NCBI GenBank assembly: GCA_965223505.1
Contig: CBDCWP010000021.1
Span: 416,001 to 480,000 of the forward strand
From: Planctomycetota bacterium
Lineage (GTDB): Bacteria > Planctomycetota > PLA2 > JAEUHO01
DNA: 64,000 bases
Reading direction: 5' to 3'
Below are positions 12,074-20,069 of the stretch, in pieces. Position 1 is the first letter of the stretch, and each line of letters starts with the position of its first letter. The notes below the pieces were generated by a model. The model had not been told where the DNA came from. It saw nothing but the letters and a program-made list of their open reading frames with translations, and did no database searches. The position numbers were made by a program, and so were the translations under genes.

Positions 12074-15031
12074 CTATTCCTCCACGAACCGGTTCACGCC
12101 CTGGATGCCCATGCGGCCGCCCGGAACGTCGAGCTTCAATCGCGCGCCGGCGCGCCAGAGCTCGATCGCGACGGCGTCGATCGGGTCGGTGTCCTGAATC
12201 GCCGTGACCAGATCCACGACATTGCGTACCCGCGCACCCCTGTAGACGAGCAGGACGTCGCCGACCCGGACGCCGGCTTCCTTCGCCCGGCTCGTCGGCG
12301 CGAAGCCCACCACCTCGACGCCGTTCGACGGATGGAGCTTCACCGTCTGCTCCGCCTTCCTCGCGTCCGGCGTGATCTCGACCGTCAGCGCCTTCGCCAC
12401 GTAGCCCGGCGCTCGCAGCACGTACTCGTGCGTTCCGATCGCGAGATCGCGGTCGTCGACCACCGACCCCTGCGCCAGGCCGCCGCCGCTCATCTCGCGC
12501 GAACGGTACGCATACGAAGCGTCGGGAACGGGCTTGCTCGTCAGCGCGTCGACGATGCGAAACACGGCTTGCCCGTCACGTGGGTCCGAGACGATCCGGA
12601 TCTCGATCGGCCCCTCGACCTCGGCGGGGTTGATCCGTGGCGCGTCGTGCACGCGGTAGTCGCTGAACGCGCTCACGATCTCATAGACGCGTGCCTGCGG
12701 CAGCGGGAGCTCGAAGCTGCCGTCGTCCTTCAGGCGTGTGGAGACGCGGAACCCCGCGCCCTCGACCGGCCGAGCAAGCAAGGACGGATTGCCGAGCGAC
12801 GACGCCCCCTCGTCCGTCTTCTTCCACTCCGTCGTGCCGCGCAGCGGGTAGGCGAGGTCGATGTCGAAGCGCCGCACCTTGCCCTCCTCGCACTCGAAGG
12901 CGCGTTGGAGGAACACCTGCGGATGGTCGCTGGAGATGCCGATCCCGTGCGCTCCGGGCTCGAGACCGTCGAACCGGAACGCGCCGTTCTCATCGGTGGC
13001 GATCTGCACGCGGCGCCGCCGGGGCGTGTCGAGACTGACCCACGCGCCGCCGATCGGTTCACCGTTCACCCGAAGCACGCCCGCAACCGCCGTCTGGTCG
13101 GGGCCGCCCAGCGTGATCTCCCGCGTCTCGCCGGGAGCGAGCGTCACGGGAAGCACGGATACGATCGACAACGTGCGCGCGTTCAGCACGACCAGCTCGA
13201 TGGGTTCGCCCGCCGGTACGTTCGTCGCGGAGGCACGACCGCCGGCGTCCAACGTCGCGCGGTCGATCAGGATGCGGTCGCTGTCGCGCCGAATGATCAG
13301 CGTGCTCCCGGCGGCGGGTCGGCCGTCGGGACGCAGGACCGTCACCGTCAGCTGCGCCGAACGCGCCATGCGCACGTCAATGCGCGTTCCGTTCGCGTGT
13401 CCGGACAGGCTCAGTCCCTGCGACCCGTAACCGGGCTTCGAGATGCGCAGGTCGGTGCTGAGCAGGCGTCCCTTCGCGATCGCGACGGGCACCACGTACA
13501 CGCCCTGTCGACCGCGGGCGTCGACCTCGACGGGCCACGGGTAGGACCGTCCATTGACTTCGGTCTGCCCCACGATCCTGACGTCCTCCAGCAGCTGTTC
13601 GGTCTCCGCGTCCACGACGCCGAGCTCGAGCTCGCCGACCTCGGGTAGCTCGACGTCGCCGATGTTCGTCGTCTTGCCGGGAGCGACGTCGATGCCGCGC
13701 TGGTCGTAGTACGCCGCGCCGTTCGCCTCGAAGAGCGGCGGATGACCGTCTGCCTGGAACAGCAGCACGTGCGCACCCGGTTCGAGCGGGCCGATCCGGA
13801 AGGCGCCGTCCGCATCGTCCACGTCGGCCACGCGATCGACGGTGAGTTCCTCCGGCAATACCGCGCCCGCGGACGCCACGCTCTGGTCGACGGTCTCGCC
13901 CGGGGGGAAGAGTCGGCCCACCGCAAGGACGCGGTAGCGGCGCATCGGTGCGCCGCCGGCGTCGATCAAGCGGCCCTCGATGAAGCCACCCTCGAGGCGA
14001 ATGAGCGTGATCGGCTCCGCGGAAGGCCGCGCGGCTCGAACGACGTTGCGCGCGTGCTCCGGATGTTCGACGACCAGATGGAACGCGCCGGTCCGATCAC
14101 GCGAGTTCGTCAGATCGAACCGGCCGTCCGCGTCCGTCTCGGCGGTAATCGATCGAAGCTGCTGGAAGTCGAACGCGATGACGCGCGCGCCGGTGACGGG
14201 TTCGCCCGTGACCGGATCCACGACCCGGCCGAAGACGCGCGGCGTGCGATCGATGACGTCGTCGTTCGCCTCCGGCGGAGTCGTTTCGGCGGTCACGAGG
14301 CCCGGCGCTGCGCCGGCTTCGCCATCCGAGACGAGCGCCTTGCCGTCGTCGGCAGGCGTTCGTTGCGCTTCGTCCTCCGAGCGCGCGTCGTCGAACATCC
14401 ACCACACGGCGAGTCCGATCACCAAGGCGACCGCGACGACGACCATCTTCTTGCCCACGAGAAGTCCTCCGAGAGTGAGCCCGCCTTCGCGGATGGGGAG
14501 CATGGGAACGAGCGCGCCCAGCGCGCCGCGCCAGCGCTTGTCGTCACCGCCGTACGTCGAGGCGAGCCGCGCGCGCATCCGCGCGAGGCCGCTCCGGAGT
14601 CGGTTGTGGACGGTGTGCACCGGTACGTCGAGCGCTTCGGCGACCTTGCGCGGAGGAAGACCCTCGTCGTAACGAAGCAGCACGACGTCGCGCTCCGCGT
14701 CGGGCAGGCGGAGAATGGCGTCGATCAGGTTGCGGCGCGTCGCTTCGCGCTCGAGGATGGCCTCGGGCGAACGGTCCTCCGGACTGCGCCGGGCGCGATC
14801 TTCGTGTACCTGCCGTCGCCGTTCTCCGCGCCGGGTGTTGCGCACGACGTTTCGAAGCGTGCGTGACAGCCAGCCGCGCGGACTGCTGACGTCCGGACGC
14901 TTCTGCCACGCGAGGGCGAGCGTTTCCTGGACGGCGTCGTCCGCCAGATCGGGCGAGCGCAGCAGACGAACCGCGAGCCGTCGCAGGAAGTCGGCGTGAA
15001 CCGAGAGGTCTTCGGGGGTCAGGGCAGCCAT
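12074..15031 (-). CDS. ECF sigma factor fused to a TM helix, carboxypeptidase-regulatory-like Ig domains and a C-terminal PDZ domain
   Basis: Sigma region 2 (ADDAVQETL) and region 4 (LPDAERDVVLLRY...TVHNRL); TM VVVAVALVIGLAVWW; repeated GRVVD..G.PV motifs; PDZ SRAKEAGVRVGDVLL. Confidence 0.85.
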   Translation of the reverse strand: MAALTPEDLSVHADFLRRLAVRLLRSPDLADDAVQETLALAWQKRPDVSSPRGWLSRTLRNVVRNTRRGERRRQVHEDRARRSPEDRSPEAILEREATRRNLIDAILRLPDAERDVVLLRYDEGLPPRKVAEALDVPVHTVHNRLRSGLARMRARLASTYGGDDKRWRGALGALVPMLPIREGGLTLGGLLVGKKMVVVAVALVIGLAVWWMFDDARSEDEAQRTPADDGKALVSDGEAGAAPGLVTAETTPPEANDDVIDRTPRVFGRVVDPVTGEPVTGARVIAFDFQQLRSITAETDADGRFDLTNSRDRTGAFHLVVEHPEHARNVVRAARPSAEPITLIRLEGGFIEGRLIDAGGAPMRRYRVLAVGRLFPPGETVDQSVASAGAVLPEELTVDRVADVDDADGAFRIGPLEPGAHVLLFQADGHPPLFEANGAAYYDQRGIDVAPGKTTNIGDVELPEVGELELGVVDAETEQLLEDVRIVGQTEVNGRSYPWPVEVDARGRQGVYVVPVAIAKGRLLSTDLRISKPGYGSQGLSLSGHANGTRIDVRMARSAQLTVTVLRPDGRPAAGSTLIIRRDSDRILIDRATLDAGGRASATNVPAGEPIELVVLNARTLSIVSVLPVTLAPGETREITLGGPDQTAVAGVLRVNGEPIGGAWVSLDTPRRRRVQIATDENGAFRFDGLEPGAHGIGISSDHPQVFLQRAFECEEGKVRRFDIDLAYPLRGTTEWKKTDEGASSLGNPSLLARPVEGAGFRVSTRLKDDGSFELPLPQARVYEIVSAFSDYRVHDAPRINPAEVEGPIEIRIVSDPRDGQAVFRIVDALTSKPVPDASYAYRSREMSGGGLAQGSVVDDRDLAIGTHEYVLRAPGYVAKALTVEITPDARKAEQTVKLHPSNGVEVVGFAPTSRAKEAGVRVGDVLLVYRGARVRNVVDLVTAIQDTDPIDAVAIELWRAGARLKLDVPGGRMGIQGVNRFVEE

Positions 15032-15133
15032 GGAGCGGTGGTCTCCACTCCATTGTGTCCGCTCGGCAAGGATCCTGTTGATCGCCCGCATCCAGGAGGC
15101 TCGCGGGTCGCGCGCTCCCGCGGGCCGAAGCGA

Positions 15134-16473: not shown

Positions 16474-17613
16474 ATGCGCAGAACCCTCTCGATTTGGCTC
16501 CTGCTTCTCGCTGCATTCGGCAACGTTCACGGGAACCCGGACGAGAACGCTCCCGTCCTTCGACCGTTGCCGCTCGTCGAGGGCGTGCGAGACGTGTTGA
16601 ATCGCAAAGGCGACCTTGCGGCGCTGAAGAAGACCGACGAGTACCGCCGCGCCAAGCACGTCGGTCTGGACCTGGCCGACTACGACGGCGATCCCGTCGT
16701 CGCGCACGGGATGCGCGATGGAACACTGTTCTACGTCTTCTACAAGAAGATCGAGCGCGCCTACGCACGGCGTGTTTGGGTCGTGCAGCGCATCAAACGC
16801 ACCGAGCGCAACTGGCGGAAGGGCGTCGACGAGCCGGAGACGAAGGTCACCTACCAGGTCGAGGCGTTCAAGCTCTTCAGCGGTGAGCAGAAGCGCGGTG
16901 ACCAGCATCACGGCGGCTACGGGATCAAGGACTTCGTTCGACGGGAGATCGTCAAGGAGTACGAGATCGGGTTCGCCGACATTCCGGGGCTCGCGGAAGG
17001 CGATCCGTGGCCCTGGAAGAAATCGACGCTGTTCGAGTACATCGCCCGCTACGGCCGAAGTGACGAGGTCTATCGAAAGGTCTCGTTCCACCGCTCGGTG
17101 ACGTGGTCGCTGACGGTCACGCTCGACGCGGCCGGCAATTATCGCGTCTTGGCGCCCGAGCTGGGAATCGACGTGCCCGTGAAACGCACGGACCCCGCCC
17201 GCACGTTGCCCGAGCCCCTGACCGTCGGAGCGTCGCTGGTGCTCGTTCGCGGCGTCGGGCTCGAAGGCACGCGCGCGGACGAGGGCTGGTTCGACGACTA
17301 CGTCGAGCGGGCGGGCAAGGTGCTGCAGGAGGAGCGCTTCGCGTCGGGCCACTCGAACACGATTCTCGCCGCCGGGTTGATGGCGAACCGGCGCAAGGAC
17401 GGCTCGCTCAACACGCTGCAGACCCGGGCGGGCTTCGCCGGCCGCACCAAGGAAGGGATCGCCGTCGGTTCGCCGCGTTGGGCGGTGCTCAAGGCCTACG
17501 GCCAGCCGAAGGACGCGAAGGTCGGCGCGGCATGGTGGCACTACGGCGACATCGGGTTCTGGTTCGACGGATTGGACCGTGTGGGGCGCTTCTACGTTCG
17601 GGCGAAACGCTAG
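16474..17613 (+). CDS. secreted hypothetical protein
   Basis: Signal peptide MRRTLSIWLLLLAAFGNVHG; coding-like codon usage; GRTKEGIAVGSP...AYG C-terminal domain. Confidence 0.75.
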   Translation: MRRTLSIWLLLLAAFGNVHGNPDENAPVLRPLPLVEGVRDVLNRKGDLAALKKTDEYRRAKHVGLDLADYDGDPVVAHGMRDGTLFYVFYKKIERAYARRVWVVQRIKRTERNWRKGVDEPETKVTYQVEAFKLFSGEQKRGDQHHGGYGIKDFVRREIVKEYEIGFADIPGLAEGDPWPWKKSTLFEYIARYGRSDEVYRKVSFHRSVTWSLTVTLDAAGNYRVLAPELGIDVPVKRTDPARTLPEPLTVGASLVLVRGVGLEGTRADEGWFDDYVERAGKVLQEERFASGHSNTILAAGLMANRRKDGSLNTLQTRAGFAGRTKEGIAVGSPRWAVLKAYGQPKDAKVGAAWWHYGDIGFWFDGLDRVGRFYVRAKR

Positions 17614-17631
17614 GTCCTCTATCGCCGGTTC

Positions 17632-18579
17632 TCAAGCGCCGTCGGGCTTGCCATCCGTTTCCGGCTTCGGCGCGAACTGGAAGGGGACCGTCAAGTCGCC
17701 ATTCATTTCGAAGGGCGTCGGTGCCGGGAGCGCGATCTTCGCGTGCGTCGTTCCCTCGGGGGGCTGCACCGCAGCCCCGGCGGCGCCGCCTCACCCATAC
17801 CGCATCGCCCCCTCGGCGAGCACGTCGCCGTCGGCGTTCAAGCACTGCCACGTCAGGCCGATGCGCTTGCCCCTGCGGTAGAGCGTGTTGCCCAGCCGCT
17901 TCTCCGCCTGGAAGACGACGCCGATCCGGTGCTGCCCCTTGCGCTCGAACGCACGCGCCTTCACCACGAGGCCGGTCCGCACGGCGCAGTGCGTCGTTTC
18001 GTCGGCCGTCACCTCGATTTCGCGGAAGGACGGCGAGGTCGTGGACCAGATCCACTCGGTTCCGTCCTTCTCCGCCTCGATGTGCCGGTAGCCGGTCACC
18101 TGGTACGAACCCACGGGCAACGGACGCTCGCGTTGCTCGTCATCGGGCGACCACCGCAGGCGGTACGTCTGTGACCTGTCGCCCTTGCGGAAGAGGAACA
18201 GCTCTCCATTGGCGATGGTCGACGTCACGAGCCCCGTCGGCGTCTCGTCGCCGTGCGAGGCCGTCGCAGACACGACGCAGGTCGGCTTGCCCTCTGCGTC
18301 GTTCTCGAGGTACTTGATCAAGGCCTCACGGGCCTCGGGCGGGGTGCCCGTTCACGAGGTTTCGGTCACCTGCCGCAGGAACGCGCGATCGGTCTCGAAG
18401 GTCGTGTCCGGCACGGTGTGGCACTTGGCGCAGGTGTGATGCCACGCTTCCTTCGCCTTGGCCGTCCAATCGACCGCGTCCTCGTCGGTCTTGTCGTCGG
18501 CGGCGAGCTCCATCATGCCGATGGAGAACCACGTGGCGACGACGACGGCGAGCATGCTTGCGCGTACCGGAATGCTCAT
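17632..18579 (-). CDS. exported monoheme c-type cytochrome, predicted selenoprotein with two in-frame UGA (U76, U263), 315 aa
   Basis: GGAGG RBS and ATG at 18579; signal peptide; CAKCH. TGA at 18354-18352 and 17793-17791 are in frame, and the reading continues TGTPPEAREALIKYL... and GGAAGAAVQPPEG... to TGA 17634-17632, just short of the convergent gene ending 17613. A hairpin follows each UGA. Confidence 0.75.
17760..17778 (-). promoter_or_regulatory. SECIS-like hairpin after UGA 17793-17791
   Basis: GGGGCUGC-GGU-GCAGCCCC perfect 8-bp stem; loop GGU at +21..+23 after the UGA. Confidence 0.65.
18319..18337 (-). promoter_or_regulatory. SECIS-like hairpin after UGA 18354-18352
   Basis: CGAGGCC-CGUGA-GGCCUUG 7-bp stem (one G-U pair); loop G and U at +23 and +24. 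Confidence 0.55.
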
Positions 18580-18866
18580 GACGACCTCCGGCTTCCACGA
18601 TAGCAGCCTGGTGCGGCGGCCCCGGAGGCGCGGCTGCGGACGGAGGCGAGGCTCGCCGCCGCCGCGGTGGGGGCGCCTCCCGCGCCGGCGGACAGGCCGT
18701 AGCCGCCCGTTAGGGCTCACGTGGAATTCAGCGGTCATCGCGAGTGGCCGCTGCCGAGAACTTCGGACAGACTCCCGTTGCCGGTGCTCCTCTCTCACCC
18801 GGAGGAGCGCCGGTGTGGACTTGTCAGTGTGGGTTTGCGGTGCGTCTCCTAGGGGGGGACACACCC

Positions 18867-19484
18867 GTGTCAGTTGAGACAATCGCCACTGCGCGGCCCC
18901 GGCCTGCGCAGAGTGGCTTCAGTTTGCTCGAGGTGCTCATCGGCGCCGTCGTGCTCGCCGTCGCGTTGCTGGGCCATCTCGCCAGCACCGGAACCGAGCA
19001 CCGTCTGGCGGAGCAGCAGCGCGTTCGCAGCCAGATGCTGCAGACGACGCGCCAGTTCATGGAGCGGCTGCGCTCCGACGAGAACTGGGACACGCTCTAC
19101 GATCGCCTGCGGACCGCGCAGTTCTCGCTGACCGTCGACGGCAAGGCCGGCACGGCGCTCGACAGCGGGAAGCTCGCGTGGCAGTTGACCGACTACTACC
19201 CGGAGATCGTCGTCCCCGAAACGCTCAGCGACATGCGAGTCCGCGTGGAGGTCCCCGCGACGCCCACGATGGTCAGTGGGGCACTCGGCATGCGGCTGCG
19301 CGAGGACGCGAGTCTCGAACAGTTCGGGCTCCCCGCGGATCTCGACGGAACCGGGACGATTACGTCCGATGTGTGCGACGACAGCTACGTCGCGCTGCCG
19401 GTGGTCGTCACGTTTCGCTGGGAGCTTCGCGGCCAAGCGGCGCGTGAGATGCGGGTCGCCACGTGGCTCAGGGGGAATCGATAG
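18867..19484 (+). CDS. prepilin-type N-terminal cleavage/methylation protein (PilV-like minor pilin)
   Basis: QSGFSLLEVLIGAVVLAVALLG class III signal. Confidence 0.85.
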   Translation: MSVETIATARPRPAQSGFSLLEVLIGAVVLAVALLGHLASTGTEHRLAEQQRVRSQMLQTTRQFMERLRSDENWDTLYDRLRTAQFSLTVDGKAGTALDSGKLAWQLTDYYPEIVVPETLSDMRVRVEVPATPTMVSGALGMRLREDASLEQFGLPADLDGTGTITSDVCDDSYVALPVVVTFRWELRGQAAREMRVATWLRGNR

Positions 19485-20069
19485 ATGTCCAAGTCCACTG
19501 CTTCACAGCGCGGCTTCACGTACCTCGAAGTGCTGATCGTCATGGTGATCGCGGGAACGGCGCTCGCCGGTCTCGGCAAGTCCCTCACGACCGCTCAGGA
19601 TCTCTCGAGCGAGACGCACCTTCTGGGGCAGGCGCATGCCGAGCATCGCAGGAATTTCGAGGCGATCGGCAACGCGTTGCGCTCCGTCGACATCAACACC
19701 CTCACCGGTTTCGTCGACAAGACGGTGGACGGCGACGTGATCAGCGTCGCCGCCAACCCGACGTTCGCCCGCGTCATCGGCACGCAGGACGACGCTCGTG
19801 TCTACAGCGACACCGAAGAACTTCGCTGGGAGAGCGTTCCCACGGTCATCGACGGCATCGCGAACCCCGGCCAAGTGAGCTTGGTCACGCTCAACAACGA
19901 CGGAACCGTCAAGAGCAAGGTCATGATCGGCAAGAACGTACCGTCCGGCGGTTTCCTGCTGCGCCAGGAAGGGCGCACGCTCGTCATCGCACTCACCACC
20001 TACTACGTCCTTCCCGGCCGCGAGCCGTATGTCGTGAGCAGCGAAAGCGCTGTGTCGCTGAGGAACTAG
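19485..20069 (+). CDS. prepilin-type protein (PilW/GspJ-like)
   Basis: QRGFTYLEVLIVMVIAG class III signal. Confidence 0.85.
   Translation: MSKSTASQRGFTYLEVLIVMVIAGTALAGLGKSLTTAQDLSSETHLLGQAHAEHRRNFEAIGNALRSVDINTLTGFVDKTVDGDVISVAANPTFARVIGTQDDARVYSDTEELRWESVPTVIDGIANPGQVSLVTLNNDGTVKSKVMIGKNVPSGGFLLRQEGRTLVIALTTYYVLPGREPYVVSSESAVSLRN

Follow-up and report, generated by a model that had tools for sequence, protein, structure and literature searches.

The locus and its reading frame

A 64,000 nt stretch of the genome of a Planctomycetota bacterium (assembly GCA_965223505.1, contig CBDCWP010000021.1, positions 416,001 to 480,000), referred to here as the window, carries on its minus strand a gene that very probably encodes a genuine selenoprotein with two selenocysteine (Sec, U) residues and a haem c domain. 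With TGA read as Sec, 17632..18579 (−) is a single frame of 315 codons followed by a terminal stop. The frame begins with ATG and runs from 18579 to 17632 as 75 codons, TGA, 186 codons, TGA, 52 codons and TGA. The standard bacterial reading (translation table 11) splits it into two open reading frames (ORFs), 18352..18882 (−) and 17791..18321 (−). The initial annotation of this DNA, made from the sequence alone, proposed that these two ORFs are one frame broken solely by TGA codons. The coordinates, the codon count and the motifs CAKCH, QVTETS-U-TGTPPEAREALIKYL and MRYG-U-GG all hold. The features of the gene are collected in the table below.

The G+C content at third codon positions is 0.89, 0.92 and 0.85 across the three segments of the frame. 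In the 303 nt that lie 5′ of the ATG, G+C by codon position is 0.76/0.60/0.75, a pattern unlike that of the gene. The third-position values in all segments, together with the upstream change, indicate that coding spans both TGA codons and begins at the ATG at 18579. On the other side a convergent ORF ends at 17613, which leaves the gap of 18 nt that was first reported. A promoter and terminator scan at the locus gave no result.

Features of the two-Sec gene in the window, with the basis of each assignment
Feature	Position	Strand	Basis
Complete coding sequence, 315 codons through two UGA (very probably Sec) codons	17635..18579	−	frame, third-position G+C, full-length conservation in homologues
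Shine-Dalgarno-like GGAGG, 5 nt 5′ of the ATG at 18579-18577	18585..18589	−	direct reading of the sequence
Probable Sec-type (general secretion) signal peptide, about residues 1-26, basic residue 6 then hydrophobic helix	18502..18579	−	sequence; AlphaFold2 helix 5-23, low pLDDT
Minimal class I-like cytochrome c domain, residues 36-93	18301..18474	−	models, profile matches to PDB, sub-threshold Pfam, Foldseek
Haem c attachment motif C50-A-K-C53-H54	18418..18432	−	invariant in 33/33 aligned proteins
UGA codon 76, Sec site 1, in the loop before the C-terminal helix, 22 residues past His54	18352..18354	−	TGA in 30, TGC/TGT in 4 of 34 covering loci
SECIS-type hairpin 1, 7-bp stem, loop CGUGA, overlaps codons E81-I88	18319..18337	−	covariation
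Beta-sandwich domain 1, about residues 113-203	17971..18243	−	AlphaFold2 pLDDT >90; only generic immunoglobulin (Ig)/macroglobulin (MG)-like matches
Beta-sandwich domain 2, about residues 204-305, spans Sec263	17665..17970	−	AlphaFold2 model
UGA codon 263, Sec site 2, motif YG-U-GG	17791..17793	−	TGA in 35/35 loci and in 8/8 distant-subfamily loci; G262, U263 and G264 invariant
SECIS-type hairpin 2, 8-bp stem, loop GGU, overlaps codons G268-P273	17760..17778	−	covariation
True stop TGA, conservation ceases past it	17632..17634	−	frame and comparison of homologues

Conservation of the UGA codons and the Sec machinery

Homologous DNA was drawn from three Planctomycetota metagenome-assembled genomes, five metagenome contigs and a sample of 401 Planctomycetota genomes. 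Of 4618 candidates from a word-index search, 23 proved to be homologues, including the window's own gene call, and all 23 are fragments of 173-182 amino acids that end in M-x-Y-G, exactly at the second TGA. The read-through set consists of 35 loci, the window and 34 others, with L030 and L031 excluded as duplicates and L028 as partial. Site 2 is TGA in every one of them. Site 1 is TGA in 30 loci, TGC in three and TGT in one, and one locus is partial. The true terminators are mixed, with 18 TAG, 14 TGA and three TAA codons. In-frame conservation flanks each TGA and persists to 25-30% identity. The 50 matched stretches from the 401-genome sample include 31 with at least two in-frame TGA codons, 16 with one and three with none. 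No homologue examined has Trp or Gly at either site.

The expectation that homologues would retain TGA at both positions with conserved flanks on each side is therefore borne out by the loci themselves, and the segments 3′ of each TGA are conserved and are folded into a domain by AlphaFold2. Each refuting condition set at the outset turned out in favour of a selenoprotein. A further expectation was that homologues would show either Cys or TGA at both sites. This stands for site 1, where TGA or Cys but never Trp is found, and fails for the Cys half at site 2.

An exhaustive profile search of a protein database recovered 1249 cluster representatives of the family, of which the best 148 were compared. 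Gene callers keep the middle piece alone, both at the locus and in 138 of these 148.

The apparatus on which Sec insertion depends is encoded in the same genome: selB (336 bits), tRNA-Sec (69 bits), selA (507 bits) and selD (338 bits) were all found and exceed curated cut-offs. selA and selD adjoin each other outside the window (G000:C8:36851-39232), and selD carries one in-frame TGA, being itself a selenoprotein SelD. The family is carried by 46 of the 401 sampled genomes, about one in nine, and selA is present in 44 of those 46 as against 290 of the 401 overall. The two family genomes that lack selA are 90% and 84% complete. Because selA is common in the phylum, this co-occurrence is weakly informative.

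Recoding hairpins

Each UGA is followed by a hairpin with G/U in its apical loop, as the initial annotation had described. The stem of hairpin 1 begins 14 nt and its loop 21 nt after the TGA; for hairpin 2 the distances are 12 nt and 20 nt. Both stems start within about 11-20 nt after the UGA, which together with the G/U loop is the arrangement expected of a selenocysteine insertion sequence (SECIS). The published bacterial SECIS model has a loop distance of 16-37 nt.

Both hairpins covary. In 26 sequences, 92.3% of the cells of the hairpin 1 stem are paired versus 84.7% in column shuffles, and 19 cells show double changes versus 9.1 in shuffles; none of 500 shuffles matches the observed values. 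With slid partners, 35-62% are paired. Hairpin 2, compared in 33 sequences, has 92.0% of cells paired versus 70.6% in column shuffles, and 51 double-change cells versus 16.7, with none of 500 shuffles matching either value. Changes on both sides occur in six of its eight pairs, and slid partners are 40-59% paired. The counts for hairpin 1 omit L052 and L053, where two codons are inserted and the hairpin is displaced, and four loci with Cys at site 1; those for both hairpins omit the near-duplicates L033 and L034 as well as L028. Eight close relatives all retain the rare codons CGT (Arg) and TTG (Leu), because both form the stem of hairpin 1. An Rfam search of 17500..18900 gave no match.

The TTG codon 87 (at 18321), with which the second table-11 ORF begins, was considered as a real start and rejected, since it lies in the stem of hairpin 1 and the sequence upstream of it is conserved in frame.

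Protein architecture

The protein was modelled with AlphaFold2 from a read-through alignment of 33 sequences, with Cys in place of Sec and without haem. The whole protein has a predicted local distance difference test (pLDDT) score of 88.8 and a predicted template modelling score of 0.81. A hydrophobic N-terminal stretch similar to that of the window protein is seen in the sequence of every homologue, and from this leader the protein is probably exported. The invariant residues are C50, C53, H54, P57, T74, U76, R84, L87, G125, W176, G262, U263, G264 and F290.

The cytochrome domain is laid out as a helix (38-48), the CxxCH motif (50-54), a helix (62-73), a loop (74-80) that contains U76, and a final helix (81-92). 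Modelled in isolation, it gives pLDDT 81.9 with three helices in the right order. Of the best 60 of 134 profile matches to solved structures, nearly every one is a class I cytochrome c, and the top match has E 0.00049. Against mitochondrial cytochrome c, the profile aligns the N-terminal helix with CxxCH and also the C-terminal helix (residues 87-102). The genome has a cytochrome c assembly gene (PF01578, 81 bits).

The strands that follow residue 263 (266-271, 279-283, 291-293 and 297-299) lie within the second sandwich domain, with block-mean pLDDT of 89-97. As they belong to this sandwich, the domain would be disrupted in a product that stops at residue 262. The best VIA-align match is 4zjg_A (Z 8.3, root-mean-square deviation 2.9 over 76 residues, model residues 205-301), and the best Foldseek match to the whole model is 4fxt (E 3.9e-5, template modelling (TM) score 0.20-0.29). 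These whole-model searches returned only generic Ig/macroglobulin-like sandwiches and gave no functional lead. At the level of sequence families, Pfam has no match to the full read-through protein and no usable match to 11 database homologues. An NCBIfam scan of the read-through protein at E <= 1 returned only NF040606 (di-haem peroxidase), with E 0.078 and a score of 12 bits, where the cut-off is 150.

The two selenocysteine sites

In class I cytochromes c the distal ligand is a Met in the loop just before the C-terminal helix. The cytochrome domain of the present family has no conserved Met or His, and Sec/Cys76 is the sole invariant candidate in the ligand loop; that the window protein has neither Met nor His between CAKCH and the helix was pointed out initially and is confirmed in the sequence. 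Besides His54, the only invariant residues able to bind iron are U76 and U263. In 34 of 34 loci site 1 follows the haem His by 22 residues, and Cys stands at His+22 in all 33 of the CxxCH-containing representatives among the best 148 of 1249. The site 1 Cys and its spacing are kept even in relatives without Sec263. An iron ligand for which Sec and Cys are alternative chalcogenolates would be expected to show such a pattern. The earlier proposal that U76 may be an axial ligand appears strengthened by the invariant Sec/Cys spacing from the haem His and by the profile alignment to the C-terminal helix of cytochrome c. Binding of the haem iron by Sec76 in at least one redox state is well motivated, and the balance leans modestly towards it.

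Site 2 follows a different pattern. The 138 representatives cut short by gene callers end at this site, and the other ten of the 148, distant relatives, read through it with R, S, P, A, N, T or E, mostly outside a YG-x-GGG context. Site 2 is Sec wherever the YG-x-GG context exists, with a single exception. This is P0082, a database representative with YG-T-GGGG, in which Thr replaces Sec263; it is the only non-Sec residue in an intact motif. In selenoproteins, a Sec without a Cys counterpart is rare, though a Cys form is not required. The lack of a Cys counterpart at site 2 suggests chemistry beyond that of sulfur.

A distant subfamily (L059-L066, e.g. L062, L064 and L065) carries the motif CxxCHC and a site 1 Cys, and its Sec flank reads [T/I/S]-U-G[S/A]. 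Site 2 is TGA in all eight of its loci and is followed by a hairpin of different sequence in the same place.

Proposed mechanism

SelB, guided by the downstream hairpin at each codon, would read UGA76 and UGA263 as Sec. After export, one haem would be covalently joined to C50 and C53, with His54 as the proximal ligand. Sec76 would supply the distal ligand and so give a low-potential His/selenolate haem, and the haem of relatives with a site 1 Cys would instead be His/thiolate. Sec263, which the second beta-sandwich carries in a loop rich in glycine, may act as a second reactive chalcogen, which is the weaker part of the proposal. Together with the ligand Sec it could link the two-electron chemistry of a sulfur, selenium or soft-metal substrate with the transfer of single electrons by the haem. 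As a whole, this explanation, an exported two-Sec protein with Sec76 as distal ligand and Sec263 as second chalcogen, is favoured by a modest measure.

The fullest form of the proposal is put forward tentatively and is rather less secure. It holds that this is the first natural haem protein with Sec-bound iron, a His/selenolate c-type haem, with a second Sec that is never replaced by Cys, and that it would serve as a self-contained periplasmic mover of sulfur, selenium or soft metals by means of chalcogen-chalcogen bonds at the haem ligand.

Several observations weigh against the proposal of Sec76 as iron ligand and Sec263 as its partner, or against parts of it. No Cys was found at site 2 among the loci or the best 148 of 1249 representatives, and the unrelated residues found there may mean that the role of site 2 is dispensable, or that site 2 is not the redox partner of site 1. 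The cytochrome assignment stays below threshold by every measure: Pfam PF13442 (Cytochrome_CBB3) matches 27 of 32 members weakly (best E 0.0014, gathering score unreached), and PF00034 matches 12 of 32, also weakly and under its gathering score. Foldseek places cytochromes c6 first for the isolated domain, with TM scores of 0.51-0.58 but E >= 0.79, and VIA-align gives Z <= 4.4. Single-sequence folding energies of the two hairpins are unexceptional for G+C-rich DNA (z = -1.96 and -0.61); the folding energy alone is not above chance, and the hairpins are significant through the comparison of homologues alone. Finally, 73 flanking ORFs from 31 loci and five ORFs of the window, chosen by a filter on G+C by codon position that may miss genes, include no conserved neighbour gene, hence no pointer to a substrate.

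Alternative explanations

The TGA codons might be ordinary stops. The locus would then consist of a cytochrome c gene of 75 residues, a second gene of 176 residues with its start at TTG 18321 and a non-coding tail, or else be a decaying pseudogene. TGA often serves as a stop in this G+C-rich genome, and the middle piece alone is what is annotated, here and in 138 of 148 representatives. Yet TGA stands at site 2 in 43 of 43 loci, in contrast to the mixed codons that end the genes; at site 1 it alternates with Cys codons, and conservation continues in frame across both TGAs at identities down to 25-30%. Both hairpins covary, the conserved TTG "start" belongs to the stem of hairpin 1, and the tail completes a beta-sandwich with pLDDT of 89-97, so that ordinary stops are very improbable. 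Reassignment of UGA exists in a few bacterial lineages, and a suppressor or a reassigned code could insert Trp, Gly or Cys. Such a reading is extremely improbable for this gene: TGA terminates it and 14 of the 35 loci, the genome has the full Sec machinery, a reassigned codon needs no position-specific hairpins, and neither Trp nor Gly occurs at either site in homologues.

A more serious alternative accepts a two-Sec haem protein in which Sec76 is not a ligand. The selenols would form a diselenide or selenenylsulfide couple (Sec76 with Sec263, or Cys with Sec in some relatives) or a site for Cu(I), Hg or Ag, and the haem, five-coordinate or otherwise ligated, would do no more than supply or drain electrons. 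The invariance of both sites in the core family agrees with this, as do the metal-handling neighbours at four of 33 loci (L018, L044, L050 and L052) and the His/Gly-rich tail of the L044 homologue; several catalogued selenoproteins bind metals (PMC13188914). What tells against it is that relatives without Sec263 keep the site 1 Cys at the same spacing, and the role of site 1 is thus independent of site 2. There is, moreover, no other conserved Cys that could be a partner, and 29 of 33 loci have no metal context. On this evidence a non-ligand Sec76 seems somewhat unlikely.

Comparison with known systems

The cytochrome domain resembles class I cytochromes c (mitochondrial and c6) in its N-terminal helix, its CxxCH motif and a C-terminal helix resembling xxEREDLIAYL. 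It differs from them in the lack of a conserved Met, in the 22 residues between the haem His and the candidate ligand, and in its fusion to two beta-sandwiches.

With SoxA and TsdA the protein would share the character of an exported c-type haem protein with a distal chalcogenolate, Cys in those proteins and, by prediction, Sec or Cys here. It has one haem and not two, a far smaller cytochrome domain, and selenium in place of sulfur. The cysteine of SoxY is flanked by glycines and stands on a beta-sandwich carrier. Analogous pieces of the Sox system, namely a haem, a candidate ligand Sec and a glycine-flanked Sec on a beta-sandwich, are found here in a single chain, with the difference that Sec263 is internal and the SoxY Cys is C-terminal. 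TsdA and SoxA have Cys-ligated c haems whose ligand is active in catalysis, and the ligand Cys of TsdA bears a thiosulfonate intermediate, according to the available portion of PMC4423706. In the Sox pathway it is the carrier-arm Cys of SoxY that resolves the adduct (available portions of PMC4423706 and PMC5336275). SoxA, TsdA and SoxY are not among the sequence and fold matches (for solved structures, the best 60 of 134), and no sox genes occur among the flanking ORFs examined. With no homology to these proteins found among those matches, the likeness is one of working only and not of membership. By this analogy a division of labour like that of SoxAX and SoxY is conceivable, and on balance unlikely.

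Table 1 of a 2026 review lists 119 prokaryotic selenoprotein families and subfamilies, and its haem-related entries are only ExtKL (NF040886), GSU2204/OmcL (NF041027) and octahaem tetrathionate reductase (TIGR04315) (PMC13188914). These three are, like the present protein, bacterial proteins with haem c motifs and Sec. They differ in having just one Sec and in being either multihaem proteins or barrels of the outer membrane, and the table gives no Sec motif for them (PMC13188914). None of the three models matches the protein at E <= 1, and the 119-family table has no entry for a two-Sec protein with a monohaem cytochrome and beta-sandwiches (PMC13188914). The initial statement that this is not a described selenoprotein family is thus upheld: neither Pfam nor NCBIfam has a model for it, and that table does not list it. 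The family was not found in full-text literature searches, which included the available portion of the deep-Sep paper (PMC12013277), and BSepDB or supplements could include it. It appears to be a real, widespread and so far uncatalogued family of two-Sec haem proteins.

In enzymes, Sec binds Mo/W and Ni. On haem iron, in the literature searched, it occurs only in engineered P450s, and no natural Sec-ligated haem came up in the full-text searches. The putative selenolate here would replace a thiolate on haem iron as it does in engineered seleno-P450cam, CYP119 and CYP125. Those are laboratory substitutions with a b-type haem and Sec as sole protein ligand, whereas the present haem is proposed to be a natural, encoded His/Sec c-type. 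Sec is a stronger electron donor than thiolate in the engineered seleno-P450s (available portion of PMC11273360). If the proposal is true, a natural His/Sec c-type haem would broaden the biochemistry of selenium as well as that of haem, and would offer a native system for spectroscopy of the way in which selenolate tunes haem potential and reactivity. The family is also systematically mis-annotated, with 138 of the best 148 representatives cut at the second UGA, and genome annotation pipelines would gain a new selenoprotein model.

Family variants and neighbouring genes

An operon-defined function for the core family was considered and rejected, there being no conserved partner in the flanking ORFs. 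Three of the eight distant-subfamily loci have, about 9 nt 5′ of the gene, the end of an ORF that contains four CxxCH motifs. This tetrahaem-type ORF and the gene resemble an operon, an arrangement that fits a role in electron transfer.

At individual loci of the core family, the neighbours are varied. A gene with CusB-like HlyD_D23 and HMBD domains lies downstream at L018. The homologue at L044 (L044:1393-2304) has the His/Gly-rich C-terminal tail GHGGGGHGGGGHGGGH, and its flanks hold an HMBD-domain ORF, an extracytoplasmic function (ECF) sigma factor and a MerR regulator. A YHS/TRASH protein is encoded upstream at L050, and an AcrB-type pump nearby at L052. These neighbours, at four of 33 loci, make a link with soft metals possible.

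Two members depart from the usual form. P0030 (642 amino acids) is a site 1 Cys member fused behind an N-terminal region of about 400 residues, for which Pfam has no match, and it ends at site 2. L028:1501-2199 is a metagenome copy near-identical to L024; it has a non-TGA stop before the conserved QTWFRLRW, and the contig ends within it. Either a broken gene or an assembly error is possible.

Elsewhere in the window, 12074..15091 (−) is an ORF of 1005 residues with N-terminal ECF sigma-70 regions 2 and 4 and carboxypeptidase-regulatory-like domains, which would be an unusual fusion if the ORF is real. Two divergent ORFs at 18744..20069 (+), which have no Pfam match at E <= 1e-5, show by eye prepilin-type leader/methylation-like starts, GFSLLEVLIG... 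and RGFTYLEVLIVMVIAG....

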